In this document: one piece after another, positions 1,035-25,174 of the stretch
Layout of the letters: each line of letters opens with the position of its first letter
Position numbering within the stretch: position 1 is the stretch's first letter
From: Takakia lepidozioides
Taxonomy: Eukaryota > Plantae > Bryophyta
Reading direction: 5' to 3'
Assembly (NCBI GenBank): GCA_030704615.1
Contig: CM060734.1
Span: 44,144,001-44,208,000 of the forward strand
DNA length: 64,000 nt
Program-made: the position numbers and the translations under genes
The notes under the pieces: model-generated
Database searches by the model: none
The model's input: only the letters and a program-made list of their open reading frames with translations
What the model was told of the DNA's origin: nothing

Positions 1035-2330
1035 TGTCGCCATTGTGTGGTGATGAACATGGAGGAGATGTATAGAGCTACCAAGGGGCCTCGTAGGTCC
1101 TCTGGAGCTGTGGGACCAATCGAGTTGGATGATCTTTATCCAGGAGTTCGACAGCTGGTGTGATTTTGCAGCAGATTCGCAATCCACAGCTATTCACCCC
1201 ATTCATGGGGACGTTAAGGACTGTTCCACATGTTGGAAGGCCCGCCTATGGACGATACCACGAGTTCAGGCGAGGACATGAAGCAAGAGATTGAGGAGTG
1301 GAGGATTATTTGGTCACCTGACTACGTCTCCATTACTCGAGGCACGACGCGACCAGTAGCTCATCGTACCAATAGCTCCACTAGGCCAGGCACTAGTAGT
1401 GGAAGCGTAGTGCTGGACTGGTACTGGTCTAAACCTGAGTGGTCCAGTTCAAAAGTTGCCACTACTCCTCCTGCCACGACTACAACACATGTGCCTAGAT
1501 TCAACCCCAATGGTGGAGTTCTATCCCGGAGTTGCGGAGGAACTACCAAGGTGTATCGGACAGAGAAGCATGCGAAGTTTGCAAGGACTTCGCAGCGCAA
1601 ACCCAGTGATAGCTTGCGAGAGGCGTACACTCGTATGAGGCGCTGATAAGTGTGACCCAAGGGTACTGAAGCTCAGGCAATCCAGTTTTGGTATGGAATT
1701 TTGGACAAGGAGCTCAAGAGAAGGGGGGCGAGATGGAACCCTGTTACAAGCAGCCCAACCCACATTAGCAATGTGTTTCTGCTGGCTGAGCGGATTGAGC
1801 TCAACATGGTGGAGGAACGATTGTTACAATTGGATTTGGCAAGGACAATGCCTGCAAGCCTGGGCACAGCTGTTAGCCCACAGGCAGGCACAAGGGACTC
1901 CCACAATCGTTTGTCAGGTCCAGGGGGGCAAGGTTGCCACACCTAACCAGTTCCATGGACAATTACAGGGGTAACCTCAGGTGCTGAAATGCCCGTGGCA
2001 TCTTTTGCAGGCCAACAGCACCAAGGGTGATATGTTGGACATGTGAAGGACTCAATGTCCAAAAGAGATTGCCCGAGAGAGTGGCAAAAGGCCGGCACAA
2101 GCAGCAGCCTTCACAGTTGCAGTGTGGGCATTGTGGCAAGTTATGGGCATGGAGAATGCCCATGTTATGACTTGCTCACTGAATTGCGCCCAAAAGAGCC
2201 AGTTCCAAGGGACAATGTTGTGGCCGGGGGCGAGGTGGACCAGCCCCAGAAGGACTAGGTGGTCGGGCACGAGGTGCAGGCCAGGGCAAGCTCCACATGG
2301 CCAAAAGTGACTCTGATGTCAGGGTGTTGA
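1035..2330 (+). pseudogene. gag: gag of copy A, multiple frameshifts
   Basis: Position upstream of protease; degenerate zinc-knuckle-like motifs (ICWTC...KRDCP near 2030-2075; CGHCGK.GH..C near 2120-2165). Confidence 0.6.
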
Positions 2331-3099
2331 CCAAGGCCTGGCCAATCGTCTTCAGCAGCTAGATCATAGGCTCGCTGCCATGGCTATAGCTCAGGCGTAC
2401 CAGGCTCCCAGGCGGGATGGTCCACCTCCTGCTCCTGAGGGAAGAGATATGGGAGGCTGGGATTCATTTCGAGAGCAGCACTTGACCATTAAAGTTCAGG
2501 TGGGAGTCCTGCAAAAGCCGGGGAGCTTCGAAGAGCATGCAGGACACGATTTCGAGCCACGAGGTGCAGAGGTGGAATTGGATGCACGGCGTGGGGAGGC
2601 CATACTGTCAGGGGCGAGGCTTCCTCAGTCATTCACTTGGCGGAGACAGTGACGCCCCACCATGGCACCTAGTTCTCGCCGACTGTTACCGGGAGGCGGA
2701 GGTTACTATGCCATTGGGGAGAGCTACACTGCAGCACTGCACGCGTGCTATCCAAAGGCTAGTGCAGCCGGTGTGTTATTGGGGGCAGCCCCTCTGGTGT
2801 CAAGCCCCACTGTTCAACTCGGCAACCATGATTGCGCAGCACCCGGGGGGGGTAAGGCCATTGCACTGTTCAAACTCTATCATCAACACTGCACAACACA
2901 AAATAGAGTGGGGGAGGTCACTTCATTTCTGCGGAGTTAGTGGGAAGGTTAGTGGCAGAGGATCCTCGATTTGAGTGTCCAGACTGCTACGGATCTAGCG
3001 CCTGGCAAGCTTGCAAGCTGCCAGGTTGACGGAGCTGCCAGCTAGCCAGCCTTTGAAGCGCGCCATGGTGACACCTGGAGTTTTGTCTTGTTAGACAAC

Positions 3100-3540
3100 C
3101 AGGGAGGCATTATCACTTATGAGTGGACCGGCAGGCAAGAAGTACCGGGCCACTGGCTGGTCTTGTTGGACTCGGGAGCTCAGCCACTGATGTTGGGCAG
3201 AGCTGGCTATTGCAGGGTTTGGGACCTCATGGAGGCATATTGAGCCTTATCCTTTCCTATATAGACATCTCTGGGAGGATCAGAGCAGCGCTCAGGGCAT
3301 GACACGGCATCAGATTGGCCATTATCTGCAGCCAACTCCGTATCACCTATCGCTGGCTCAGTGATAAAGCTGGCCAAGGCTTGTGACAGCCGCGGTCTCT
3401 TATTATGTCCTCGTTGGTGGGTCAATGTTATACCCCATGGGCTTCAAAACCCTGGTACTTTGGGAGGAGTCAGCATCCTACAGGCCTGGATGGCAGTCAG
3501 GCGATGGGTCGTCGTGCACAGCTCCCTGTGACATTCATTG
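3100..3540 (+). pseudogene. Retroviral-type aspartic protease domain of copy A
   Basis: GTC TTG TTG GAC TCG GGA GCT CAG = VLLDSGAQ (DSG at 3169-3177); downstream YYVLVGG resembles the ILG motif. Confidence 0.8.
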
Positions 3541-3934
3541 GGGGTATAGCGGCTGCCCAGCGGGGCAAGATTGCCACACTAGCCGCCTTTACACAGCTTT
3601 TGTTAGTTGGCCTGGAGAGTTGCTGACAGGCCAATCCCATGGGGCAATGTGCCCCATCCATCAGAGCAGGATTACATTGATGGAGTGATGCCACACTCCG
3701 GGGGGTAGGATGGACTCAACTGTTTTCGGGTTGCCCTCCCATCCGGTTTCTCCCACATTCTTATGTGGGGTCACGAGCACAGGATTTGCAGCAGGTTGCT
3801 ATCGACGGGTGCAACAAGCCTAGGTCGAGGCTTTTGTACCGTCAGGAGGAGGAGGAGAAGTGCGGTATTGCACCCGTACCACCTCAGTTGTCACATTGGA
3901 TACCACACCTATTGTGTGGCAGTATCCGGATGAA

Positions 3935-4900
3935 GGCATTTGCCTTCTGACTTGTTTGGGGCGGATCAGCACCGGATTGGCCGCTTTGCTACAGGCAGGT
4001 GTGCGGACAGGCGTTACCTGCATGTGGAGAGGGATGAGACTGCACGACGCGTCTCACTGCGCCATGTTGCTCAGTTGGGTCACGGCAGTACCCGTGTTTT
4101 GTTGCCAGTGTCTGCAGTTCGTGGATAACCAACGGGCCTTGCTAGCAGACATTTCGTTGTTGGGGGGCGCCAGATTTGGAGGCAGGTTGGCTCCATTGAT
4201 CTGGTAGTGGCAGGTTGGCCCTGCCAAGGCATTCATCAGCCGGCATTGCAATGGATTGCGAGACTCAAGGACGGTGTCTGTTTTGGAGATGGTGCAGTTT
4301 TTGCGCCACTTGCAGCTTCATCAAGCTGTATCACCAGCATACATCTTGGAGAATGTGCCACTGATGGGCGATTCTCGGCCAGGGTGATGGCCAGTGTGCA
4401 TCAAGTCCGGTCGTTGCTTTGGTCAGCAGTGCTGCTTGATGCAGCTGCAGTGGGATCACGGGCTCATCGTCCACGGCTATGGTGGACTAACTTGATGCCA
4501 CCCGCACTGCACTCAAGTGTGCATTTGATGGGGTGGGAGCGGCCACCACCTCATAGTGGACAGTATTTTGGACACAGGGAGGCAGTCTCAACGTGTGAGA
4601 CATGATGACCGTTCGCCTTGGCAATGGTCAACAGGGTGGGTCAACCACGAGCAGCATTACCTACACTGCTCAGCTTCCCAGGATCCCATTGCTTTTCGGG
4701 ATGGTGGACCTGGCCTCCTGTGGGATGCTCAGTTGCAAGCAGTTATTGGAGCCTAATGTCGACGCGCGCGAGCGGGCTATGGGGTTTTTCCACTGGGACC
4801 CGAAACGGCTTGTGCCTTCCTTTCTGAGGCATCCACGGCGTCAAGTGTTGGGGGCAAGCAATGGATCTCAATTGCTTGACCTGGATTAGAATCAGCTTGG
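3935..4900 (+). pseudogene. DNMT3-like C5-cytosine methyltransferase domain, copy A (many indels)
   Basis: Clearly homologous at DNA level to the near-intact copy at 17088-18040; DLVVAGWPCQG, YILENV, DAAAVGSRAHRPRLWWTNL, ERAMGF and LGQAM-like segments visible in shifting frames. Confidence 0.88.
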
Positions 4901-5339
4901 ATATGGCTGAGCAACGTAGAGGGCGGAGTGCACTTACCTTGACGGTCTCTCTGCTCTGCCTACCGAGACGGTACAGCAGCAAGTGGGGGGGTGAGCCGGT
5001 GAGACCACGGGTTGTAGACATCCATGGCACACGTGGGAGGTGCTCGAGGTCCAGAGGGAGTTGGCAGCCAAGACAGCTGTGATGGAGATATAGGTTTTGG
5101 ATCTTCTTCTCGGTTGAGGAGGTTCTCATGATGAGATGATGGGGCAGGATTGAGGCCTTGTCATTGACTGAGCAGGAGGGAGTACTGCTCAGAGGTTTGC
5201 AGCATAGCAACACGGGAACGCGTCCTCTACCTCTAAGCCCACGAACTTAAGGTTGCAGTTACGGAGGACAATTGGGAGCCTGACATTGGACATATTGTCA
5301 CCGGAGGAGAAGACACGTATACGGGGTTCCTGAGGGCTT

Positions 5340-6710
5340 ACAAGGAATTGCTTTGCGTTCAGTTTGAAGGACTGGGAGCACTGAAGGGTCAAGAGATCCG
5401 TATTATAGTTGGCCACTGACACGCCAATCTTTCGGAGACCCTATAGATACAGTGACATGGAGAGTCTTTGATTCAGATGAGGACTCAAGATCTCTGGGAG
5501 GCAGGTTTGGTGGAGCTCTCTGGGTGGAGAGTATGCTTCAGCCACAATGATGTCAGCTAAGAAGGATGTCTATGGCAATTGGACGGAGAGACGTATGTGC
5601 GGTGATTACCAGCTGTAAATCGTCAGACCAAGTCCAATAGGTATGCCATGCCGACACCAGAGGAGATCTTTGATGCCATTGGGCATTCCAAGGTCTTTAG
5701 CACGTTGGATTTACGATCCGGATATCACCAGTTGCCGATCAAGGAGGCGGATAAGCAAAAGACGGCATTCTGAGGGATCAATGAGCACGGGAAGGATTGC
5801 CTATACCAGTGGCGTTCTTACCATTTGGGCTTAAAAACGCTCCCGCTGAGTTTCAAAGAGTCATCGACATGATTCTAGCAGGGGCGGAGTTTGCTCGGTG
5901 CTACATAGATGACATCAACATCTTGAGTGCTACGGTGGAGGAGCATGAGAGACACCTTTAGGGGGTATTTGAGCGCTTGAGGGCGCACGGATTGAAGTTA
6001 CATCCGGGAAGTGCAAGTTTTTTCACAACCCAGATTGAGTATCTGGGCACATGATATATCCTAGAGGATTGGGGGTACAGCAGACTAAGGTAGAGTCCAT
6101 TGCATCAGGTTCCACGCCCCACGGATGTGAGCCGAGTTCGAGCTTTCATCATGGGGTTAGCAAACTATTACAGACGGTTTGTTAAGGGATTCAGTGCCAT
6201 TGCAAAGGCTCTAACCAAGCTGACCAGGTGGACCAAGAGTGGCAGTGGGAAGATGAGCAGAACAACAAGCTTTTTTCAAGAGCTCAAGGCGAGGTTGACC
6301 TCGGCGCCCTCTTGAGACGACCTATCAGGGGCTTCCTTTTCAGCTGCTGCATACAGATTGGCGCATGCTGGGGCTTGGAGCGGTGCTCACACAGGTGGAT
6401 GATGAGGGAAGAGAGTTCGTAGTGGCTTATGCTAGCCGCTCGAACAATGCTGCAGAGTCTAAGTATAGCTCATATGAGGGAGAATGCTTAGCTGCAGTGT
6501 GGTCCGTGGCACACTCAGGTGCTATCTATACGGCAATCTCTTCACCCTTGTCACGGATCACCAACCACTCAAGTGGTTGATGGAGTCAGACAAGCTTACG
6601 GGGAAGCTTGCACGGTGGGCACTCATCCTTCAAGAGTATGACTTTCAGGTGGTGCATCGACCGGGTTTGATCAATCGCAATGCTGATGGGTTGAGTTGCA
6701 ATCCATGCAC
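5340..6710 (+). pseudogene. pol: Reverse transcriptase and RNase H, copy A
   Basis: RMCGDY, LDLRSGYHQ, PFGLKNAP, YIDD (5902-5913), LGAVLTQ, AYASRS, EGECLA, TDHQPL, NADGLS. Confidence 0.92.
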
Positions 6711-6999
6711 GAGCCAGCAGGATGACACTGGAGCTCGGTGGCATGGTGAGACAGACGAGGAGATGGTGGCCGGATGGCATGCATCTGCATTTCTGTGTAT
6801 CGTGGCAGCGGAAGGCCAGGTTGGACCTGCAACAGGGATGACTGTAGATCAAGTGTCTGAGGACCCTGAGGCCAGCAATGAGCAAGGTGGCGCCAAAGAT
6901 ATACATGAGGAATCAGTTGTGTTGGACTACCTCCGCACTGGAGACACTGATGCCACTATGACTGCCAAGGAGAGGGATCGGATCCTACAACAAGCCAAG

Positions 7000-8350
7000 A
7001 GGTTCAAGTGGGAGGGGACACACCTGCTCCGAGTGTGGGAGGATGGTCGAGTGAGGATTGTGCCTCACCCAACACAGCGGGCACGGTTACTGCGGCATGC
7101 CCACGAGGAGTTGGGGCATTTTGGGGTGCGACGCACCCATAGCCTACTGTAGGGGCAGTATTGGTGGCGTGGTATGCAACACAGAGGTGCAACAATTTGT
7201 GGCTAGGTGCATGGTGTGGTGACAGGGTGCGTGCTTCATTCAACGCCCCTACTCCACAATTGCACCCTCTTCCGATCATGGGATTGGGCTACAGGTGGAG
7301 TCTTGACTTCGCAGGGCCGTTGCCACTGACCATCGCGCCACAACAAGTACGTGTTGTGATGGTAGAGCACTTCTCCAAGTGGATTGAATTGGTTTCATTG
7401 CCTGATAAGGCTAGTGAGGGAGCTGCATATGCATTCTTGGATTGTGTGCTTAGCCGATTCGGTGCTCCAGCTGAGGTACTCACGGACCAAGGGAGAGAGT
7501 TCTTGGGGAGTTTCAGGCTTTGTGTGACAAGGCCTTGAGACCACCGACCACCGCACCACTTCTCGGGATCATCCTGAGGCCGATGGCTTGGCAGAGAGAG
7601 TTGTTCAGACAGTAAAGAGGGGTTTGCGCAAGTATGGCTTGCAGAAGGGACACCTAGGAGATTCGGACCTTCAGTTACCCTGGTTAGCCATGGGCTACAG
7701 GTTCAGCAAGCAAGCATCACTTGCCTCCTTCTCACCATACTTTCTTCTCTTTGGCCGAGAGCCGGATTTGCCTACACTCCATTCCCAGAGAAGCTGCTAC
7801 ACAGTTCTTAACCTTGACGATCCGGACGTGTGGGCACGTGCATGTGAGCAGCGTGCAGAGTTGTTCAAGAGAGTCATGCCCATGGCTTTCGAGAACCTTG
7901 CCATTGCACAACACCGTGATACGTTGAGGTATGCTACCATACGTGTGGGGGCTATCGTCCTGGGGTTCGGAGATTCAACCCTGGTGACTATGTCTATCTG
8001 CAGCAGACTGCTCATACGACCCTGGATGTGATTGAAGGACGTGTTATTTTGAGGGTTCGAGAGGTCTTGCCCTCAGGCGTCTTGGTCTTGGAGGGTCGGG
8101 ATGGCATAACTTGGAAGGACCATGTGCGTATTGTACGCCATGTCACCTTCCAAATGTCATGGCAGGATTGATCCAAACCTGGCAGTGGTATCTGCAGGTT
8201 TGAGGTGCATGTTGTGTGGGTCTGCTAAAGGGCCAGCCACCATGCTGGTGTGTGATCGATGCTCTAGAGGTTGGCATATGGGATTGCTTGACTCCACCTC
8301 TTGAGATGGTTCCGGATGGGGATTGGTTATGTCCACATTGCATTGGATAA
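7000..8350 (+). pseudogene. Integrase with C-terminal PHD finger, copy A
   Basis: HEELGHFG zinc-binding region, WSLDFAGP, TDQGREF, AERVVQT; then CMLC...CDRC..GWH.(C)L.PPL..VPDGDWLCPHC and stop at 8348-8350. Confidence 0.88.
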
Positions 8351-8610
8351 GGGGAGTGGATACAACCATGGAAGGCTAACAAGAAATGCAAGGCCAAGCT
8401 ACTAGGAGACCTTGAACACACGAGGTCCTGGCTCAAGTTCACAGATTGCAAGACGGCGACTAATGATGGGGCTACTCTTGTACCCGGCCTCTTGGTCTAT
8501 AGAGTTTGAGTGCAATAGGGGCAGTGATAGAGGACTTAGTACGGCTGTGGCTATTACATCTTGTAGCTATCTGGAGGTAGAGGGACCTACCCACCAGCTA
8601 GGGGGGCGAT

Positions 8611-9055
8611 TGTGGCAGACTACTTTATTGTGCATATATATGTGGTGTGGTTTGGACAGCGATGTAGTTGTGTAGCGATATGTATGCGCATGACAGCTGT
8701 CAAGTTAAATAAGCACAGTGTGAAAAGAACTAGAATAAAGCTTGTTATTTATATTTAACACTTGGATTTAGGTCAAGTGTTAAATCAGGTGTCAAGTTTA
8801 GTTTGACACCTGAACGGCCTTATCTTCACGAGAGCGGCAGTCGCGTAGCTCATCTCTCTCGAGTTGAGCCTGCGCGACCGAGCTCCTTCATCGTTTAGGA
8901 CTGAGTATGCTCATGATGGTAGTGTAGGTTGTTGTGGGGTGGAGTCCCCACAGCTTGGGGTGCCCCTGGCTCGACTTCTATTTTAACGAGTGATAGCGAT
9001 GGATTTCATGTTGTTTCTGGTGTGAACAGTGTGTCTCTTAGCTTTTTCTTATCAT
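8611..9055 (+). repeat. Truncated 3' LTR of copy A, preceded by a polypurine tract (AGGGGGG, about 8600-8606)
   Basis: TGTGGCAG starts a few nt after the G-run; the segment 8699-9055 recurs at 15292-15645. Confidence 0.7.
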
Positions 9056-9239
9056 TGTGGCAGACTACTTTATTGTGCATATGTGGTGTGGTTTGGACAG
9101 CGATGTAGTTGTGTAGCGATATGTATGCGCACGACAAATCCTCCATGGGTCATGACACAAGGTCAAGGACAATGTGGTGGGGGCACCTTCTTCTTCGACC
9201 TATTTCACCCTATTTTTCCATCTCATCAAGCACCTCAAC

Positions 9240-11660: not shown

Positions 11661-11778
11661 CTGGGTGTCAGTACATTGAATGAAAACATCAGTTTAACCC
11701 TCGTAGGTGTCGCAAATGCTATGAACAAAAGAGCTGGACAGAGTACTTTTCTCATGTGTGGGTTTTCTTTAATGACAG

Positions 11779-11912
11779 ATGGAATTTGAAGACTGGTTGA
11801 AGCAAGGAGATATAAAGAGTACAATATGCGAGGAAGTTCAAAGAGAGTGTCCTGACATCTTGGTCATGGGAAGCCATAGCCCATTGGTCATGGCTTTGGC
11901 ACATTGCAACGG
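11779..11912 (+). pseudogene. Universal stress protein (USP)-like exon fragment
   Basis: After a ...ACAG acceptor-like site: MEFEDWLKQGDIKSTICEEVQRECPDILVMGSH...GHGFGTLQR, matching the plant USP pattern W.K.GD.K..IC.EV....PD.LV.GS.G.G. Confidence 0.65.
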
Positions 11913-12579
11913 AATTGCATACTCTATCGACTAGCAGCCATAGTGTTTGAATGATAATCAATACAACTTGGTGTCTATATATTTCTGGCACGATATTCAC
12001 AAACTAAAAAGTTCCCTGAGCATTGCTGTCGAAATTTCTACCAATTGTGGGATGATGGCATTTGCATTCTTATTAACCGCGAGAAAGAAATACATTTTTT
12101 GGATTTACTATGTTTTTTTTATGATCTGTCATAGGTATGCCTATAAGAGTTTCTAGAGTGGGTTCATAAGACATAACAGGGATGGAGGATGCCTAATATG
12201 GACTTTGTCAATGCCCATGCAAGTGAATTATGAATCCAAATGTGACAAGAGTAGTTTGTTATTAGTGAGTCAACCAGTCATGTGTTGTGAAGGGCCATTG
12301 CTGGCCCAAGACTGCTTACTATTTGCCACTTGACAAAAAATATTTTGATAAAATTCCCCAAAAATATGATTGGTCGTAGGGCTCAAGGTTCACTTAAGCA
12401 TTTTGATTGGTTCAACTTTGGCAACACTATGCCATTCTTCTTGAGCAAAACAACGAAACAGGAGATGTGTATTTTACATTTTTTTTTATCCCTGCCCGGA
12501 CTGCCTGCCCGAGAACGGCCAATACACCAAATTTTCCCAGAACGTGCCGGGTCTGCCCGGTTCTTGAAGTTGTTGCAGC

Positions 12580-13112
12580 TCTTAAACTGCAGGAGCTCTG
12601 CATTTTCCGCCATCGTTCACCTTGCAACGAACGTTGATAATCCTTGTGAGGCTTAATTAGGCGGCTTCCCAATCACTGACGACGTTTCTTCTTCGATTTG
12701 ACTCTCCTGGTAAGACCAAGCATTTCTGATCCTCCTAGTGGGAAACTTCTTAAGCTCCATAGATCATAAACAGCATTTCAAACATTTTTGTGTATCGACA
12801 GCCCTCTTATCTGCTGCAATGGATGTTTGAGTGCAACAAATTCTTGGCAGTTCTTGAACTGCAGGAGCTCTGCGTTTCCCGCCATCATTCACCTTGCAAG
12901 CTGAGAGCTCTCAGCAAAGACCGTGGCTTTCCCTCATTTTGTCATAGGTAGTACGAACGTTGATAATCCTTGTGAGGCTTAATTAGGCAGCTTCCCAATC
13001 TCTGACGACGGTGCTTCTTTGATCTGACTCTTCTGGTAAGAGTAAGGATTTCTAATCCTCCTAGTGGAAAACTTCTTAAACTCCATAAATCATAAACAAC
13101 ATTTCAAACATT
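12580..13112. repeat. Imperfect tandem duplication (about 12580-12788 / 12850-13112; second copy has an insertion of about 50 bp)
   Basis: Shared CTGCAGGAGCTCTGC...ACGAACGTTGATAATCCTTGTGAGGCTTAATTAGGC...CATTTCAAACATTT. Confidence 0.85.
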
Positions 13113-13332
13113 TAGGTCTGAGTTCAGCAAGCAGTTATGCGAATGTTTGCTTGTAATAGGAAAGAGAATGGGCAGAACCAACACCAAAAGAAATGTGCAA
13201 ATTCTTCTTGTTTCAATATGATTGAGGGATCTTGTGTGTATGTTGTCTCTTTGATTGTCACAAGTAATTCACTAGTCAACGCTGAGATTGTGGTGGTGCA
13301 GTCCGGGCTCACATCTGTTTGTGATGTGGTCA

Positions 13333-13814
13333 GTGGCCACTGCCTGAGACAGGTAGACATCCCTGGTACCCACAAAAAAATCTGTATCAAACATATCATG
13401 TCTGTCATGACACTTTAGAGGTACTAGAAAACAAATGCAGTTGTCTCATATGGCAAGATCAACAAGAAAAAAATAAACAAACAAGTTGTTGGACACAAAT
13501 GTATATCGAACAAGGAAATCACACCAATTAGATGATGACTTGACATATGTGTGTTGGCAAGTAAATCACAGAAGGAATCATTCCAAAAGTATCTGCAGAC
13601 AAGCATTGTACACCATCAACTTGCATCGGCTCTTGGAAGTGGAACAGGTCGATCAACAATAGGTACACAAAAATCCAGCTTATCCTGATACATTAAAATT
13701 TAGCTTTTGATGATTTGAGTCTGGCCATTGCCTGAGACAGGCAGACATCCCTGGTACCCACAAAGAAACTATAACAAACCTGTCATGTCTGTCATGATAC
13801 TTTAGAGGTACTAG

Positions 13815-13865
<51 letters not shown>

Positions 13866-14115
13866 CTTCGGCCTAAACCGGCGTAACTAAGAGCCACTTC
13901 GCCTTACGGCTACTGCCCCCTCTCGGGGGTGGGCCCTATTACTAGAAAACAAATGGAGTTGTCTCATATGGCAAGATGAAGAAGAAAAAAACAAACAAAC
14001 AAGTTGTTGGACAAATGTATATCGAACAAGGAAATCACACCAATCAGATGATGACTTGACATGTGTGTGTTGGCATGTAAATCACATGAGGAATCATTCC
14101 AAAAGTATCTGCAGG
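13333..14115. repeat. Imperfect direct duplication (about 13333-13598 / 13722-14115)
   Basis: Shared GCCTGAGACAGG.AGACATCCCTGGTACCCACAAA...GGAATCATTCCAAAAGTATCTGCAG. Confidence 0.85.
13821..13939 (-). mobile_element. Short retroposed insertion (SINE or LINE 3' end) with (TC)n tail and 12-bp TSD
   Basis: TACTAGAAAACA at 13809-13820 and 13940-13951; the empty site is seen in the paralogous copy near 13422-13433; (GA)n at 13821-13862. Confidence 0.8.
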
Positions 14116-14794
14116 CAACTGGTGTACTAAACACTCTCACAACAGGCACTTGTCTTATGTCCTTTGCCCTATTTCACATACCTTGTGTTTTATTGTAAAA
14201 GTTGCAAAATTATGATATATCTCAGAAAGTTGCAAATAGTGCCTCGGTTACTAGGAGAATATTTGAAACTGAGGTAAGAAGAGTATGGAATTTAAGGTCC
14301 CTGTGTTTGGTTGCCTAGCATCACATGCACATTATAGCAATTCTGACTGGACAGTTGCTGCTTTAATACTCGCACTTAGGACTACATGAGGCAATTAGCA
14401 GGGCCTTCTAGATCCTGGCCCTTCTTTCTTACCAAAGAAGAGAAAAAGATAGACTTTGTAGCACTTTCTCTTGGCCCCATACGAATAGCCTACTAGCATT
14501 AGCCCGTCTCTCACCAAAATCATTTCATAAGCTGGAAAATCTGCATCCAAGAAACGGGACTTTCTAAATGCATATGACGAGCATGACTAGTCCACATAGG
14601 TTGTTTCTTCCATCCACCAACTAGAGCTAAATTCATTTGACACAATCATGACTAGCCAGTAACCGTGCATCTGCAACAGTAAAACTTACCTGGTAGTTGC
14701 CCGAGCCGCATCCTAGCCCAACAGTGCCCAGAATGTAGTTTCCATCAACTGACCCCACCATCTGATCTTGAATTCATCTTGAATTGTACCAAGG

Positions 14795-15285
14795 TTGCAA
14801 TGTGTGTGCAAACCTGGGAGCCCTGGAAAATGGGAAAGAGGTTTGTGGTGACATCGTCAATGCTGGAATTGCATCAGATTCATCCTGAACACTGCCCTGA
14901 TGGACATATGCCAAATGTGGGTGGATCGAGGATGCGAAGGGAGTTTTCAACACTGTGGTTGAAAGAAATGTGGTGTCGTGGAACGCTATGCTTGCAGGGT
15001 ATGCACAGCAGGGGCACGGGATGGAGGCTTTGGAGACCTATGAACAAATGATGGGGGAAGTGGTGAAGCCCTCATGGAGTGCAATGATTGCAGGATATTA
15101 AAGTGGATAAGAGCCTTCTTGACGCCAAATGTGGGAGCGGAAAAGATGCACGTCAGGTTTTCGACAAAATGCCTGAACGAGATGTGGTCTCATGGACTGC
15201 CATGATTACAGGATATGCTAAGCATGGCTATGCTGAAGAGGCTTTCAAGATACAAGCAAATGGAACTGGACGCGATGACACCGAA
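14795..15285 (+). pseudogene. PPR fragments (two pieces)
   Basis: Degenerate L-S-P motifs, then AKCGSGKDARQVFDKMPERDVVSWTAMITGYAKHG. Confidence 0.8.
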
Positions 15286-15291
15286 CAGGGC

Positions 15292-15645
15292 GTCAAGTTA
15301 AATAAGCATAGTGTGAAACTAACTAGAATAAAGCTAGTTATTTGTATTTAACACTTGGATTTAGGTCAAGTGTTAAATCAGGTGTCAAGTTTAGTTTGAC
15401 ACCTGAACCGTCTTATCTTCACAAGAGCGTCAGTCGCGCAGCTCATCTCTCTCGAGTTGAGCCTGCGCGACCGAGCTCCTTCATGCTTTAGAATCTGAGT
15501 GTGCTTATGTAGGGGTATAGGTTGTTGTGGGGTGGAGTCCCCATAGCTTGGGGTGCCCCTGGCTCGACTATTATCTTAAAGAGTGATGTTGATGGATTTC
15601 ATGTTTCCTGTGTGAACAGTGTGTCCTTTCAAGCTTTCTATCACT
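15292..15645 (+). repeat. LTR fragment of the DNMT-Gypsy family
   Basis: Close match to 8699-9055, including the twin inverted repeats. Confidence 0.8.
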
Positions 15646-16572
15646 CGAGAGAGATGACTCTATCTAGTTTTAGCTAGATATGATGTTTTTGTTTTTTTAA
15701 GCATTATTATAATATAGCTTGGTCACGGGGAGCAGAACAGGAAGGCGGAAACCATTCGAAGTGTTGCTGCAGCAGTTCAAAGCCAACAATAATCGGCCCC
15801 GGGGAAGCCCGTTTGTTTGAGGCTGGTGGAAGCATTTGCAGGGGTCGCCTACACATTCTCATTTGGAGTGTGCGCTGCAGGTAATCTTGTTGCGGTGGGG
15901 TCCCTGGTGTCAAACCAGGCTGTTGCGGTGGTAGGAGGGTCAGCGTGGCCGCGGCGGATGGTTTTGCTGTAGAGCTCGCGATTCCCAAGCGCGGTGGAGC
16001 AATATGTTGAAATTCCAGTAGTGCAAGCGTCATGAATGTGTGTTGCAGGTTGATTGGGTGGTTGATGGACTTGCGCCTCCGTGCAAGAATCTGAGAGAGA
16101 CACAGATTACTTGCCATGGCAGCTACATAGGGGAGAAAGTGACCTTGAGGATGAATATAAGAAGGGATATGCTCTGGAAGTCGCTTTCGCTCCTCAATAA
16201 TTTCTAACGCAGAGAGTAGAAACAGCGTGTCATTTTAGTACCCGGCATGAAGACGACCGAGGTCGTGGCTCTGGCCTGACCCCCTACAGTAAGCAGGAAA
16301 TATATCCTACTTACAATCCCGGGAACAAATGGGTAAGAGCTTCGAAGGCTGGCTCAGATCGTTTGAACTTTGGACGGTCTGCAGACATAGTTCTTGTTTT
16401 CGAGCAATGTGGCAGACAGCTGCTGTCATTCCAGCCGAGAAGGTGGATGTGATGTCCATGTAAGCATTAACTATTCACAACCTACAACGTCTTCGTAGTC
16501 CACAGTCGACTATTTGCCGTTCTCTTTCTGCCGCGGTTGCCAAATTGACCCGGCGATTAGGAGGCTGAAGCT

Positions 16573-16668
16573 ATGGCAGGAGTTGAGACAGACCATGACG
16601 CACCAGCCATGGTAGTGTCTGAAGGGAAGACTGTTGCAGTTATCATGGTCGGCGGTCCAACAAAAGGC
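16573..16668 (+). pseudogene. First-exon fragment of a mannose-1-phosphate guanylyltransferase alpha (GMPPA / KONJAC-like) gene
   Basis: MAGVETDHDAPAMVVSEGKTVAVIMVGGPTKG; the VAVIMVGGPTKG motif is characteristic of the plant GMPP-alpha N-terminus, and homology stops there. Confidence 0.75.
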
Positions 16669-17018
16669 GATCCAAAATCTCTTTGGTAGGTGGTGTGGAG
16701 CCATTCAGGCTATGAACGTGCGGCTCGAACTTTACCAGCCGATCAATGACCCGGCATGGGGCAAGATGCCAACACTAGCCGCCTTTACAGCTGCAGTTAG
16801 TTGGCCAAGAGAGTTGCTGGAAGGCAATGTCCATGCCGAGGATGTGCCACCTCCCGCAGAGCAGGATGACATGCATGGTACGGCGGAGTTGCCTGCCATG
16901 GTTGCTCACACTCCATTATGGGATACGAGCAATGATTTGCAGCAGGCTGCTGATGGACGGGTGCAACAAGCTTGGGTAGAAGCTTTCGTACCGTCAGGAG
17001 AGGAGGAGAGTGCGGTGA

Positions 17019-18266
17019 TTGCACCAGGACCACCCCAGTTGTCGCCATTGGACATCACACCTCTTGTGTGGCAGCGCCCGGATGAAGGCATATGCCTTCT
17101 GGTTTGGCGGGATCAGCACGGGATTGGCTGCAGTGCTGCAGGCAGGTGTACGAGTTCGATGTTACCTGTATGTGGAGAGGGACGAGACTGCACGACGCGT
17201 CTCACTGCGCCATGTTGCTCACTTGGTACAGCAGTACTCTGAGCTGTTGCCAGTGTCTGCAATTCGTGGATACCAACAAGCCTTGCCAGCAGACATTTCG
17301 TTGCTGGGGGCGCAGGATTTAGAGCAAGTTAGCTCCATTGATCTGGTAGTGGCAGGTTGGCCCTGCCAAGGGCATTCATCAGCCGGGCATGGCAATGGAT
17401 TGCGAGACTCGATGACGGGTCTGTTTTGGGAGATGGTGCGGGTTTTGCGTCACTTACAGCTTCATCAAGATGTATCTCCAGCATACATCTTGGAGAATGT
17501 GCCACTGATGGGTGATTCTCGGGCCAGGGTGATGGCCAGGGTGCATCAAGTCCGGTCGTGGCTTGGGTCAGCAGTGTTGCTGGATGCAGCTGCAGTGGGG
17601 TCACGGGCTCATCATCCACGGCTATGGTGGACTAACTTGATGCCACCCGCACTGCTCAAGCGTGCATTTGATGGGGTGCAGCGCCCAACACACCTCACAG
17701 TGGACAGCATTTTGGACACAGGGAGGCAGTCTCAACGTGTGAGACACGATGACCGTTCGCCTTCGGCAGTGGTCAACAGGGTGGGTCAACCACGAGCAGC
17801 TTTACCTACACTGCTCAACTTCCCAGGATCCCATGCGTTTCAGGATGGTGGACCTGGCCTCTTGTGGGATAGTCAGTTGCAACAATTAGTGGAGCCCAAT
17901 GCTGACAAGCACGAGCGGGCGATGGGTTTTACCACTGGTACCACGGCGGTGCCATCTCTTTCTAAGGCATCACGTCGTCAGGTGTTGGGGCAAGCAATGG
18001 ATCTCAATTGCTTGACCTGGATTATCAGCTTGGCTATGGCTGAGGAGCGCAGAGTGCGAAGTACACTGCCCTTCATGGTCTCCCTGCCTACCGAGACGGT
18101 ACAGGCAGCGAGTGGGGGCGAGCAGGTGAGGACCACGAGGTGCAGGCCGCATCCATGGCACACGTGGGAGGTGCTCGAGGCTCATAAGGAGTTGGCAGCC
18201 AAGGCGGCGGTGATGGATCAGGTTGGGGATTTTCTCGGGTTGAGGAGGTCCTCAAGGATGGGATGA
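17019..18266 (+). CDS. DNMT3-like C5-cytosine DNA methyltransferase domain of pol (domain about 17088-18040; frameshift just before motif I)
   Basis: Motif I FGGISTG, II YVERD, III ADI, IV AGWPCQGHS (Cys codon 17364-17366), VI YILENV (17493-17501), VIII RAHHPRLWWTNL, IX ERAMGF, X LGQAM, all in one frame. Confidence 0.92.
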   Translation: MHQDHPSCRHWTSHLLCGSARMKAYAFWFGGISTGLAAVLQAGVRVRCYLYVERDETARRVSLRHVAHLVQQYSELLPVSAIRGYQQALPADISLLGAQDLEQVSSIDLVVAGWPCQGHSSAGHGNGLRDSMTGLFWEMVRVLRHLQLHQDVSPAYILENVPLMGDSRARVMARVHQVRSWLGSAVLLDAAAVGSRAHHPRLWWTNLMPPALLKRAFDGVQRPTHLTVDSILDTGRQSQRVRHDDRSPSAVVNRVGQPRAALPTLLNFPGSHAFQDGGPGLLWDSQLQQLVEPNADKHERAMGFTTGTTAVPSLSKASRRQVLGQAMDLNCLTWIISLAMAEERRVRSTLPFMVSLPTETVQAASGGEQVRTTRCRPHPWHTWEVLEAHKELAAKAAVMDQVGDFLGLRRSSRMG

Positions 18267-18457
18267 TGGGGCAGGGTGAGACATTGTCACTGACAGAGGA
18301 GGCAGTGGTCACTGCTCAAGAGGTTGCAGCATAGCAACCACGGGACCCTTCTACCTCTAAGCCTGCTGGACTCAAGGTTGCATTCACGGAGGACAACTGG
18401 GAGCCTAATGTTGGACCTATAGTCACCTGAGGAGAGAGACGACGTATACGGCGGTTC

Positions 18458-20200
18458 TTGAGGGCTTACAGGAACTGCTTTGCCTTCAGTTTGAAGGACT
18501 TAAGAGCACTGAAGGGTCAAGAGATTCGCATTGAATTGGCTACTGACACGCCAATCTTTCGGAGACCCTATAGATACAGTGACATGGAGAGGTCATTGAT
18601 TCAGATGAGAACTCAGGACCTTTGGGAGGCTGGTTTGGTGGAGCTATCTTGGGGAGAGTATGCTTCAGCCACAGTGTTGCCAGCCAAGAAGGATGTCTAT
18701 GGCAATTGGACGGAGAGACGTATGTGCGGTGATTACCGGCTGTAAATCGTCAGACCAAGTCCAATAGGTATGCCATGCCGACACCAGAGGAGATCTTTGA
18801 TGCCATTGGGCATTCCAAGGTCTTTAGCACGTTGGATTTACGATCCGGATATCACTAGTTGCCGATTAAGGAGGCGGATAAGCAAAAGACGGCATTCTGG
18901 GGGATCAATGAGTACGGGAAGGATTGCCTATACCAGTGGCGGTTCTTACCATTTGGGCTTAAAAACGCTCCTGCTGAGTTTCAAAGAGTCATGGACAGGA
19001 TTCTAGCAAGGATGGAGTTTGCTCGGTGCTACATAGATGAAATCATCATCTTGAGTGCTACGGTGGAGGAGCATGAGAGACACCTTTTGGGGGGTATTTG
19101 AGCGCTTGAGGGCGCACGGATTGAAGTTACATCCGGGAAAGTGCAAGTTTTTCCACAACCAGATTGAGTATCTGGGTCACATGATATATCTTGGAGGATT
19201 AGGGGTACAGCAGACTAAGGTAGAGTCCATTGCACAGGTTCCACGCCCCACGGATGTGAGCCGAGTTCGAGCTTTCATGGGGTTAGCAAACTATTATAGA
19301 CGGTTTGTTAAGGGATTCAGTGCCATTGCAAAGGCTCTAACCAAGCTGACCAAGGTGGACCAGGAGTGGCAGTGGGAAGATGAGCAAGAACAAGCTTTTC
19401 AAGAGCTCAAGGCGAGGTTGACCTCAGCGCCCATCTTGAGACGGCTTATTAGGGGGCGTCCTTTTCAGCTGCATACAGATTGGAGCATGCTAGGGCTTGG
19501 AGCGGTGCTCACACAGGTGGATGATGAGGGAAGAGAGTTCGTAGTGGCTTATGCTAGCCGCTCGAACAACGTTGCAGAGTCTAAGTATAGCTCATATGAG
19601 GGAGAATGCTTAGCTGCAGTGTGGGCCGTGGCACACTTCAGGTGCTATCTATACGGCAATCTCTTCACCCTTGTCACGGATCACCAACCACTCAAGTGGT
19701 TGATGGAGTCAGACAAGCTTACGGGGAAGCTTGCACGGTGGGCACTCATCCTTCAAGAATATGACTTTCAGGTGGTGCATCGACCGGGTTTGGTTAATCG
19801 CAATGCAGATGGGTTGAGTCGCAATCCATGCACGAGCAAGCAGGATGACACTGGAGCTCGGTGGCATGGTGAGACGGACGAGGAGATGGTGCCCGGATGG
19901 CATGCATCTGCATTTCTGTGTATCTTGGCAGCGGAAGGCCAGGTTGGACCTGCAACAGGGATGACTGTAGATCAAGTGTCTGAGGACCCTGAGGCCAGCA
20001 ATGAGCAAGGTGGCGCCAAAGATATACATGAGGAATCAGTTGTGTTGGACTACCTCCACATTGGAGACACTGCAGCCACTGTGACTGCCAAGGAGAGGGA
20101 TCGGATCCTACAACAAGCCAAGAGGTTCAAGTGGGAGGGGACACACCTGCTCCGAGTGTTGGAGGATGGTCGAGTGAGGATTGTGCCTCACCCAATATAG
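18458..20200 (+). pseudogene. pol: RT and RNase H, copy B
   Basis: ORFs 18458-18745, 18859-19101 and 19055-20200; the RT motif reads YIDE at 19030-19041; RNase H HTDWS, LGAVL, TDHQPL. Confidence 0.92.
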
Positions 20201-20204
20201 CGGG

Positions 20205-21144
20205 CACGGTTAGTGCGGTATGCCCACGAGGAGTTGGGGCATTTTGGAGTGCGACGCATAGCCTACTGTAGGGGCAGTATTGGTGGCGTGGTATACACAC
20301 AGAGGTGCAACAATTTGTGGCTAGGTGCATGGTGTGTGACAGGATGCGTGCTTCATTCAACGCCCTTACTCCACAATTGCACCCTCTTCCGATCATGGGA
20401 TTGGGCTACAAGTGGAGTCTTGACTTCGCAGGGCCGTTGCCACTGACCATGCGCCACAACAAGTACGTGTTGGTGATGGTGGAGCACTTCTCCAAGTGGA
20501 CTGAATTGGTTCCATTGCCTGATAAGGCTAGTGAGGGAGCTGCGTATGCATTCTTGGATTGTGTGCTTAGCCGATTCGGTGCTCCAGCTGAGGTACTCAC
20601 GGACCAAGGGAGAGAGTTCTTGGGGGAGTTTCAGGCTTTGTGTGACAAGGCCTTGATAGACCACCGCACCACTTCTCGGGATCATCCTGAGGCCGATAGC
20701 TTGGCTGAGAGAGTTGTTCAAACAGTAAAGAGGGGTTTGCGCAAGTATGGCTTGCAGAAGGGACACCTAGGAGATTCGGACCTTCAGTTACCTTGGTTAG
20801 CCATAGGCTACAGGTTCAGCAAGCAAGCATCACTTGCCTCCTTCTCACCATACTTTCTTCTCTTTGGCCAAGAGCCGGATTTGCCTACATCCATTCGCAG
20901 GGAAGTTGCTACAGTTCTTAACCTTGACGATCCGGACGTGTGGGCACGTGCATGTGAGCAGCGTGCAGAGTTGTTCAAGAAAGTCATGCCTATGGCTTTC
21001 GAGAACCTTGCCATTGCACAACACCGTGATACGTTGAGATATGCTACCATACGTGGTGGGGGCTATCGTCCTGGGGTTCGGAGATTCAACCCTGGTGACT
21101 ATGTCTATCTGCAGCAGACTGCTCCCACGACCTTGGATTGTTGA
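20205..21144 (+). pseudogene. Integrase, copy B (C-terminally truncated)
   Basis: HEELGHFG, CMVC, WSLDFAGP, TDQGREF, AERVVQT, SPYFLLFG. Confidence 0.92.
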
Positions 21145-22135: not shown

Positions 22136-22682
22136 ATCAATCAATATCAACATACCCAAATACCCTTACATTCACTGTATGAACTTTCAAGCATCCACCA
22201 TGGGATTGGATCTTGGTGGGTTAAGGCTAGCTTTTGACAATATTCATGCAAGTTCATCAAGGGCTCCATCCAAAGCCACACCACGAGAAACAAACAAACA
22301 TGTCCAAATTTAAGATGCTGAACAAACTTGTGCACAGGGCTGCCCCTCTCATCAAGCTCATTAAAATTCGTATTCACTTCCATCTTCAAGCTTTGGAGAA
22401 GCTCCACCACCCAAACCCAGAATTAGGACAGCACTCTGATTTCCATCCACTGTCACCAGAATCAGTCAAAAATCACCCCTTCGGTCAAGTGCAATTATGG
22501 GCTGACTTTCCACCTATGCCGGGTAAACCCCACTATCATTTCCTGTGGATTTATGGCACAGGAAATGCACTCAACAGTACATCATGGTCAATACTTTCGG
22601 GAAATGGTGGATGGTGTGAGTAGCTAAGTCACAGATCAATGAATGAAGCAAGACACTCGCATCTTTCCAAGAAGACATCCTT

Positions 22683-25174
22683 TCACCAGTAATCACCACA
22701 AGAACAAATCCCATCTTCAAAGTGGTGAAAGCGGTTAGCGTCCCGTACAACAATTGCTCGGCCAACAATCTTTGAGATGAATTTGGTGGAGGTGTGGCAG
22801 TCACCACACACTCGAAGATTCTTGATGAGACGGAGAGGCGTCCTAGGGGTCGTCTGATCAGCCCAAAACCAATGGCCAGCTTCTCACTGTGGTGGCAAAG
22901 AGAAAATTCCTTTTCATCCTCCCCACATCATGCAATACAAAGCGCCTGTCAGGCACATACCCCGCCTCCTTCATCTTCCCAGACAATCTTCTCAGCTCAG
23001 CATGGATTTCCTTAATTCTGGGATGTAACTTGTCATCTACAACGAAGGTGTGCACCCTGTTGCAAACCTCAATGCAGCAGCGACCTGGCTCCTTTTCAAC
23101 CCCTCTGACCGTCATCATTTTTCTGACCTTTACAGTATCAACCCACCTGCCAGCTGCAGCATAGATGTTTGATAGCAACATAAGTCGCGGCATCCTGTTC
23201 ATTCCACTTGAGGATAGATGTTGCCGCACGTTGAGCCATCTCTACATTGTCATGGATTCTGCAGGCACTAAACAAGGCCTTCCACACCACAACATCTGGA
23301 TTGATTGGCATTTTATTAATCAAGTCCACTGCCTCATCCAGTTGTCCCGCACGTCCAAGAAGGTCCACCATGCAGCCAAAGTGCTATACTGTCGGAGTGA
23401 CACCATGATCTTGAATCAGGGAATCGAAGTAGCGTCTACCTTCATTCAGAAGGCCAGTGAGGCTGCATGCAGAGAGAACACATACTGCTTCAAGCCGCTC
23501 TTTTGCATTCCTTCAAATAGTTACAGGGCCTCCCTATGACAACCATGCTGTGCATATCCTGCGATCATTGCATTCCACGACACCACATCTCATTCAGCCA
23601 TATTGTCGAACACTCCCTTTGCATCCTCCATGCACCCACATTTGGCATACATGTCCACCAGGGCAGAGTTCAGGATCACATCTGGTACAATTCCAGCTCT
23701 GACGATGTCGCCATGCACCTCTTTGCCCTTTTCCAGGGCTGCCAGGCTTGCACACACACTGCAAATGCACACAAACGTGATGTGGTCGGGCTTCACCCCG
23801 TCGCACATCATTTGCTCATAGGTCTCCAAAGCCTCCATCCCACGTCCCTGCTGTGCATACCCTGCAAGCACCGCACTCCACGACACCACACCTCGTTCAG
23901 CCATAGTGTCGAACACTCCCTTTGCATCCTAGATGCACCCACATTTTGCAAACATGTCCGCTAGGGTATTGTTTAGAATGACAGCTGGTACAATTCCAGC
24001 TCTGAAGATGTCGCCATGGACCTCTTTCCCCCTTTCCAGAGCTGCCAGGGCAGTGTTTAGAATGACATTTGGTACAATTCCAGCTTTGACGATATCCCCA
24101 TGCACCTCTTTGCCCTTCTCTAGGGCTGCCAGGCTCGCACGACGCCACATCTTGTTCAGCCATAGTGTTGAACACTCCCATTGCGTCCTAGATGCACCCA
24201 CATTTTGCAAACATGTCCACCAGGGTATTGTTCAGAATGAAATCTGGTACAATTCCAGCTCTGAAGATGTCGCCATGGACCTCTTTGCCCCTTTCCAGAG
24301 CTGCCAGGCTTGCACACGCATTGCAAACGCACCCAAACGTGATGTGGTTGGGCTTCACCCCTTCTCCCATCATTTGTTCATAAGTCTCCAAAGCCTCCAT
24401 ACCACGTTCTTACTGTGCATACCCTGCAAGCATTGCGTCCAATGGCACCACATCTCGTTCAGCCATAGTGTTGAAAACTCCCTTCGCATCCTTAATGCAC
24501 CCACATTTGGCATACATGTCCACCAGGGCAGTTTCCAGAATGACATCTGGTACAATTCCAGCTTTGACGATGTCACCATGGATCTCTTTCCTCTTTTCCA
24601 GAGCTCCCCGGCTTGCACACGCATTGTAAACACAAACAACTGCGATGTGGTTGGGCTTCACCCTTTCGCGCAGCATTTGCTCATAGGTCTCCAAAGCATT
24701 CCTACCACACCCGTGCTTGGTAAATCCTGCCAACATTATGTTCCACATGATCAAACATTGTTGAGGCATTCTGTTGAACACTTGGTAGGCATCCATGATG
24801 TTCCCACACTTAACATACATGTTGACAAGGGAGTTGAGTAGAAAAAAAATTGACGTGAATCGACTTTGGATAATGTGAGTGTGCACCTGCTTTCCAGCTT
24901 CCAGACCTCCCATCTTGATGCACTTAAGCAAGAGATAAGCATACGTATCTGAATCTGCTGAAATGCCTCCTTGGTTTATAGTCTGTAGAGCCTCTGCCAG
25001 TCTGCCTGTCGCACGAAGTATCTTCACATGCCCAGAAGGGCCAGAAGAGGTATTGTGGACTCCCTCTCTTGATCCTCTTTCAGAAGCTGTGGCCATGGAT
25101 GAGGTGCCTGATTTCATCAACTGTGCCACTGCAACTGCTGCATTCAGTTGACCATCTACCCAGAGAGACCACAT
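22683..25174 (-). pseudogene. PLS-class PPR-DYW gene (C-to-U editing factor type), frameshifted
   Basis: Leader, P-L-S triplets, E domain (CMVDLLGRAG..WKALFSACRIH), PG box variant [41 protein letters not shown]; stop at 22683-22685. Confidence 0.92.

Follow-up and report, generated by a model that had tools for sequence, protein, structure and literature searches.

Why a transposon would carry an enzyme that silences it has been an open question since 2018. The sole Gypsy case described before is KnitGypsy-Dnmt3, a low-copy family in one alga (Klebsormidium nitens) that has an unpermuted Dnmt3 domain in a Gypsy element, DIRS-like repeats and a Ka/Ks under 0.2. Its methyltransferase produced no methylation in yeast, a result called inconclusive in the same paper, and human DNMT3B also failed in that assay (PMC5890265). 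The question is raised again by an open stop-to-stop frame of 415 codons on the forward strand at 17019-18266 of the window, by which we mean the whole 64,000-nucleotide stretch of DNA analyzed here. This frame, taken from the list of open reading frames, contains FGGISTG, ERD, ADI, GWPCQ, ENV, PRLWWTNL, ERAMGF and LGQAM in linear order, and the original prediction described it as a near-intact DNMT3-like methyltransferase carried by a transposon within a Gypsy pol, and as the best candidate for a new system in the window.

The 17019-18266 frame was matched by PF00145 (E 1.1e-11, 45.2 bits, cut-off 22), and a single-sequence search of the PDB gave DNMT3A as its best match. A 24-sequence profile searched against the PDB also returned DNMT3A as the top match (E 1e-23), whereas DRM-type entries matched at 6e-12 or weaker over part of the profile only and bacterial enzymes at 1e-7 or weaker. 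The AlphaFold model of 17103-18023 (pLDDT 86, pTM 0.86) matched DNMT3A, DNMT3B and DNMT3C first (E 1.5e-14, TM about 0.7), and about 20% of the residues aligned by structure are identical to DNMT3A. By sequence, profile and fold the window methyltransferase is a genuine DNMT3-like domain, and the Pfam and structure comparisons suggested with the original prediction agree with it on this point. The prediction that the domain is not circularly permuted like DRM also held; a DRM-type enzyme was rejected on the linear motif order and the weaker, partial profile match. A chance reading frame was rejected because the PF00145, PDB and fold matches lie far beyond chance, and bacterial or phage methylase contamination was rejected as the named relatives are proteins of liverworts, mosses and green algae encoded on contigs of chromosome size. 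A search of IMG/VR with the window element gave 0 matches. In the domain the catalytic Cys codon lies at 17364 and ENV at 17493. Across the 24 sequences (35-72% identity) conservation reaches 90% or more at Pro-Cys, at Glu-Asn and at the two motif VIII arginines, and motif I and the motif VIII RxR are whole in the relatives of the window domain; the motif numbering and the role of the motif VIII arginines are presumed here to apply to it. The coordinates of the features are collected in Table 1.

Table 1. Features of the two element copies in the window.
Feature	Position	Strand	Remarks
Fuller second copy	1059..8356	+	gag, protease, DNMT, stop, RT, RNase H, integrase, PHD
Polypurine tract-like run	8596..8608	+	AGCTAGGGGGGCG, directly 5' of repeat B
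3' end of second copy	8609..9136	+	B-A-B
5' terminal repeat A of window copy	15291..15637	+	89% identical over 350 nt to 8699-9045
Protease-to-DNMT linker remnant	16758..17102	+	frame 2; match to second copy begins at 16758
DNMT3-like C5 methyltransferase domain	17103..18044	+	frame 3; Pfam, PDB, profile and fold matches
Conserved stop TAG CAA CCA	18332..18340	+	RT frame; TMV-type readthrough context
Reverse transcriptase	18398..19370	+	broken: stop at 18428, frameshifts near 18739 and 19089
RNase H	19373..19762	+	PF17917 E 4e-36, PF17919 E 2.5e-32
Integrase (H2C2 and core)	20248..21138	+	PF00665 E 2.9e-14

The domain is carried by a transposon, as predicted, and lies between the protease and RT of a Ty3/Gypsy element. 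The family order is gag-protease-DNMT3-[stop]-RT-RNase H-integrase-PHD, which contains the Ty3/Gypsy order protease-RT-RNase H-integrase; a tyrosine recombinase had no match in intact frames and an rve integrase was found instead. The nearest named proteins were from Calypogeia (72% identity), Marchantia (70-71%) and Sphagnum (67%), and these, with the PPR-DYW remnants that fill the window, make a bryophyte host likely, probably a moss or liverwort. Relatives of the family at 60-72% identity occur in Marchantia, Calypogeia, Riccia and Sphagnum. By protein search we obtained 166 relatives comparable in length and 72 that were longer, and a profile recovered 51. In the proteomes of liverworts and peat moss such domains carry annotations as host DNA methyltransferases, and DNMT3 counts can be too high as a result. 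The family is very abundant in the host genome, with a read depth in run X1 of 3e5-1.3e6 over the element versus 222-260 over low-copy flanks, depth being no copy number. One subfamily has long tandem repeats between gag and protease (L038:271-1299, L039:7480-8511 and L040:7725-8707).

The profile search also identified K. nitens KFL_009030040, in which the DNMT precedes RT, RNase H and integrase; its identity to the window copy is 44% for the DNMT and likewise 44% for RT-RNase H. From its species and domains we infer that this is a copy of KnitGypsy-Dnmt3. The 13 rows with DNMT before RT, which include the window copy, Marchantia and Klebsormidium, formed one branch in a DNMT tree of 96 rows (SH-aLRT 97) and in an RT-RNase H tree of 39 rows (SH-aLRT 99). 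Both were quick SH-aLRT trees with no bootstrap; the RT-RNase H tree, for which 25 of the 83 second-architecture proteins were drawn at random and a single long-branch outgroup was used, gives no root or event order. The shared branch and its matching inner order in both trees indicate that the DNMT domain was inherited together with the RT, and both trees support common descent of the window copy and the K. nitens element. Among P0162-P0359, a second and larger architecture, RT-RNase H-DNMT-integrase-PHD, was present in 83 of the 90 long proteins with both domains, and the position of the DNMT has changed within the lineage. Named relatives with DNMT ahead of integrase and PHD included one from Cymbomonas (P0189), a Chromochloris-labelled protein (P0173) also contained the DNMT, and the profile matches with E up to 1e-30 fall into 614 clusters at 50% identity.

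The claim of a new system was therefore not upheld, as the same design is that of KnitGypsy-Dnmt3, which is 44% identical and on the same branch (PMC5890265). Both families have a DNMT upstream of RT in a Gypsy coding region, DIRS-like repeats and purifying selection; the window family differs in its land-plant host and very high abundance. In PMC5890265 the KnitGypsy-Dnmt3 DNMT is placed in the Pol ORF, whereas in the window family it is behind Gag-protease and before the stop. The palindromic junction, purine tract and 4-bp duplications described below are features of the window family that are absent from the portions of PMC5890265 available to us, and what is new relative to those portions is the land-plant spread with high copy, the conserved stop, and the split ends with their junction. 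Its species table lists Physcomitrella and Selaginella and has no entry for Marchantia or Sphagnum. The name "streptophyte Gypsy-DNMT3" comes from a 2026 preprint (bioRxiv 10.64898/2026.05.21.726589), which, like PMC12344493, mentions the streptophyte elements by citing the 2018 paper. Our literature search, which had Repbase and subscription journals outside its scope, found no report of a land-plant Gypsy-DNMT3, of the stop or of the junction, and the supplementary trees of the preprint and PMC12344493 may include land plants. SymbioDIRS-Dnmt3 of Symbiodinium also has a Dnmt3 in a retrotransposon with A-coding-B-A-B repeats and methylates CG de novo in yeast (PMC5890265), but it is a tyrosine recombinase element, while the window family has a DDE integrase and target duplications. 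Host DNMT3 of non-seed plants (PpDNMT3b, PMC6453930) and animal DNMT3A/B share the fold and linear motif order; the window DNMT differs in lacking introns and host accessory domains and in lying within a retroelement. PMC6673714, PMC11982613 and PMC6453930 served as background only.

The DNMT-RT linker was compared in 41 metagenome loci, 25 of which reach the RT; with the two window copies these gave 27 linkers from about six subfamilies, several of the loci being duplicates of the same insertion. TAG or TAA followed by CAR was found between DNMT and RT in 27 of 27 loci and in the RT frame in 25, and TAGCA was invariant inside the poorly conserved linker. The stop was followed by the full CARYYA in 9 of the 27, by CAACCC in 17 and by CAACAC in one; as a background, CARYY was seen at 1.1% of all codon positions of the elements. 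In L003, L018, L019 and L022, the four loci with the least decay, the stop is TAG, long open frames flank it and the second frame begins at the codon after it; in L018, 1369 codons with protease and DNMT are followed by 1047 that encode RT, RNase H, integrase and PHD. Many long database proteins stop 78-163 residues past motif X. The original placement of the domain in pol has to be amended: the domain closes the Gag-protease frame, before the conserved stop. In 25 of the 27 loci the DNMT shares the RT frame yet lies on the other side of this stop.

UAG CAR YYA is the type I (tobamovirus) readthrough motif according to PMC3542737, and PMC3441728 describes stops between gag and pol as rare among LTR elements. 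The TAG CAA CCA at 18332 and the CAGTTA and CAATCA that follow the stop in distant subfamilies resemble TMV-type readthrough (PMC3542737); the differences are that the stop separates Gag-protease-DNMT from RT, that a large subfamily has CAACCC and that readthrough here is putative. It is likely that most ribosomes end at the stop and that few read through. Termination after the DNMT would yield Gag-protease-DNMT in bulk and occasional readthrough would yield RT-RNase H-integrase-PHD, and the conserved stop predicts the stoichiometry of the enzyme.

Selection on the DNMT was evaluated by dN/dS on single-frame stretches of 14 copies. Between subfamilies dN/dS was 0.09-0.18 in 19 of the 20 computable pairs and 0.23 in one, with most of these dS values near saturation. 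The unsaturated pair L018/L019 gave a DNMT dN/dS of 0.12 at a dS of 0.27. RT-RNase H gave 0.04-0.07 and decayed sister copies 0.42-0.66. These values, far below 1 between subfamilies as the original prediction called for, show purifying selection on the family DNMT.

The locus is best explained as a decayed copy of a high-copy Gypsy-DNMT3 family whose active members probably make DNMT at Gag level and probably methylate their own cDNA. Self-methylation of element cDNA was proposed in PMC5890265. An enzyme packaged together with the cDNA is indicated by the place of the DNMT behind Gag and protease, by its conserved catalytic residues and by the selection on it. We slightly favor a course in which the protease would free the DNMT inside the particle, the DNMT would methylate cytosines of the fresh cDNA so that the copy arrives marked, and the PHD finger would direct integration according to the state of the histones. 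Against cDNA self-methylation stand the null result with the algal domain in yeast and the lack of excess CpG loss. CpG o/e was 0.55 and 0.51 in the two DNMT copies, 0.20 in the other window Gypsy and 0.46 in the whole window, and by this one comparison the two copies had no sign of extra CG methylation.

Fusion behind Gag and protease is an established means of packaging in retroelements. This placement argues against a DNMT that acts on host chromatin (the locus of the element, its target site or host DNA elsewhere) and damps or reshapes silencing, as does the position between RNase H and integrase in 83 of the 90 long relatives, where the enzyme would travel with the integration complex. 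In favor of action on host chromatin, expression at Gag level would presumably exceed the need of one cDNA for enzyme, accidental action on the host methylome and a gain from slower transposition are discussed in PMC5890265, and the host-type DNMT3b of moss methylates heterochromatic CHH and CG de novo (PMC6453930). We consider this explanation unlikely. A DNMT retained for a function other than catalysis, for instance to bind or shield cDNA, or one that no longer matters in land plants, would fit the null result in yeast (PMC5890265), the absence of excess CpG loss and a DNMT dN about twice that of RT-RNase H. The at least 90% conservation of Pro-Cys, Glu-Asn and the motif VIII arginines in the 24 sequences and the dN/dS of 0.09-0.23 speak against it and make it improbable.

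Cytosine methylation by a DNMT made at Gag level, our preferred reading, is joined to readthrough and to a circular intermediate, and both could be replaced if translation of the RT depended on splicing or re-initiation and the split ends arose from DIRS/PAT-like template switching on linear DNA with no circle. We give this combination little credence. Re-initiation would be served by an in-frame ATG at codon 3, two codons past the stop, in the CAACCC subfamily (17 of 27 loci), but in neither L018 nor the window copy does a Met precede the conserved start of the RT, which excludes simple re-initiation in these two. Several Marchantia gene models fuse DNMT to RT, and relatives P0160, P0210, P0158 and P0159 have no stop, which counts against the readthrough reading; the Marchantia model P0126, which joins the two domains without the linker, favors splicing or re-initiation. 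The lone stop of the four intact loci, flanked by open frames, is unlike an intron.

Template switching draws its support from the repeat layout, which is that of DIRS-type elements. A-coding-B-A-B was complete in L016 (A at 1679-2018, coding region, purine tract, B at 10239-10350, then A and B to 10805), and the window has B-A-B at 8609-9136 and A at 15291. Two full identical LTRs and a tRNA primer site were absent, the ends being split into A and B-A-B, and no TGG as part of a tRNA site was found after A in the window or L016. The termini are TG..CA: A begins TGTCA in nine loci (seven distinct flanks) and B finishes GACA. L016 is flanked by AAGG on both sides and L015 by CACA, and these 4-bp target duplications were seen in the two insertions with both ends, each window copy being without one end. 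The inner B|A junction of the window at 8692-8701 is a palindrome, GACA-GC-TGTC, and GACA-nn-TGTC is present at this junction in the window, L016, L018 and L022, which are 4 of the 10 loci passing the PHD. The other six comprise two that end too early, two that stop after the first B with no A-B behind (L009:6946-7057 and L011:11703-11814, the A-coding-B type) and two (L038 and L039) that have the B repeat pair and lack the motif. The palindrome-bearing loci stem from subfamilies with saturated dS, and the retention of this two-base-spaced CA..TG palindrome argues against template switching. A purine run was found ahead of B in 7 of the 10 loci. A global count of GACAnnTGTC (23 versus 5.6 expected) was dropped as it was inflated by a DNMT-coding site of related copies.

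The integrases of HIV-1 and foamy virus are reported to cleave palindromic circle junctions (PMC1905944, PMC1180852). In the family studied here the A-coding-B-A-B ends, the TG/CA termini and the palindrome suggest integration from a circle. We lean marginally towards a true LTR of B+A, with cDNA that would close into a circle and an integrase that would make a staggered cut at the internal B|A junction. A two-LTR circle would give A-coding-B-A-B and a one-LTR circle A-coding-B, and A-coding-B could also form from B-to-B recombination. The circle intermediates are a proposal drawn from the end sequences, and DIRS-like template switching is an alternative for the split ends. The end structure predicts a circle-junction integration route for which the same literature search found no report in LTR retrotransposons. 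The complete scheme, in which a widespread Gypsy lineage of green plants packs a DNMT3 by a leaky stop, pre-methylates its cDNA, integrates by circle-junction cleavage and may shape bryophyte methylomes, is tentative and, taken as a whole, doubtful. If it is true, intact Marchantia copies make packaging, pre-methylation and circle integration testable in a model plant; Mp4g09160 and Mp8g17980 of Marchantia polymorpha are close relatives with long open frames, and with them the question enters a model land plant.

The window copy itself is not near-intact as had been claimed. Homology to intact Marchantia Mp4g09160 (P0124) runs in frame 2 up to 17101 and in frame 3 from 17103. This switch at 17102/17103 means that the first 28 codons of the 17019-18266 frame are off-frame, that motif I is cut, its first residues being lost at the frameshift, and that 17019 and 18266 are not gene ends. 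A one-base indel near 18229 puts the tail off-frame, and it ends at a stop at 18264-18266 while the family stop is at 18332. The copy differs from 23 relatives at six columns with a conservation of 85% or more, and the changes include three near-invariant residues. At 17613 the opening Arg of the motif VIII RxR is replaced by His, where 22 of the 23 others have Arg, and two changed residues lie at 17907-17912 immediately ahead of ERAMGF. The frameshift and the His leave the copy without a complete motif I or RxR.

Gag, protease and PHD are absent and the RT is broken. Repeat A at 15291 sits in a PPR-gene remnant and begins CGTCA where the family start is TGTCA. It is followed by about 1 kb of low-copy DNA up to 16758, where depth in run X1 steps from about 250 to 4e5, and tblastn matched residues 771-884 of Marchantia P0124 to 16766-17101. 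Within this low-copy DNA 16626-16670 reads KTVAVIMVGGPTKG, which we take to be the start of GDP-mannose pyrophosphorylase alpha; Pfam gave no match to this piece, which is too short, and contigs of runs X1 and X9 span 16029-16667. The element is cut off at 21138, ahead of the PHD finger, and other runs have loose ends at 21138. Contigs of X9, which may be an RNA run, span several parts of the element and cross the 18332 stop colinearly, with a hole at 17354-17781; they were given no weight either way as to expression. The window copy is a decayed, doubly truncated fossil with no working enzyme as part of an element. Domestication of this copy as a host DNMT3 gene through the in-frame ATG at 17082 is very improbable and was rejected: the DNMT frame is stop-free for 307 codons with the ATG just upstream and the RT and integrase frames are broken, but motif I is cut, near-invariant residues are changed, pN/pS against the second copy is of similar size in DNMT (0.29), RT-RNase H (0.39) and integrase (0.42), and RT-RNase H is also open for 381 codons, an open length expected of a young fossil.

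The second copy has its DNMT at 3949-4911 and its stop at 5205 and aligns to 16758-21138 at 90% identity, with 86 gaps in 4505 nt. It carries many frameshifts or one-base indels relative to all other contigs, which may be old decay or assembly error. Its PHD was placed by tblastn, and Pfam gave no match to the 43-residue PHD piece. At its 3' end, B at 8609-8695 is followed by a two-base spacer, A from 8698 to about 9053 and B at 9054-9136, the two B repeats being 94% identical. An unrelated Gypsy remnant at 39319-41438 (the one with a CpG o/e of 0.20) contains RT, RNase H and integrase at about 24-40% identity, and no DNMT match was found near it. Both window copies lie beside PPR-DYW remnants. 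PLS-type PPR arrays, many of them frameshifted, occupy 9200-15300 and 22500-58200 on both strands, with DYW-like ends at 22571-23241.
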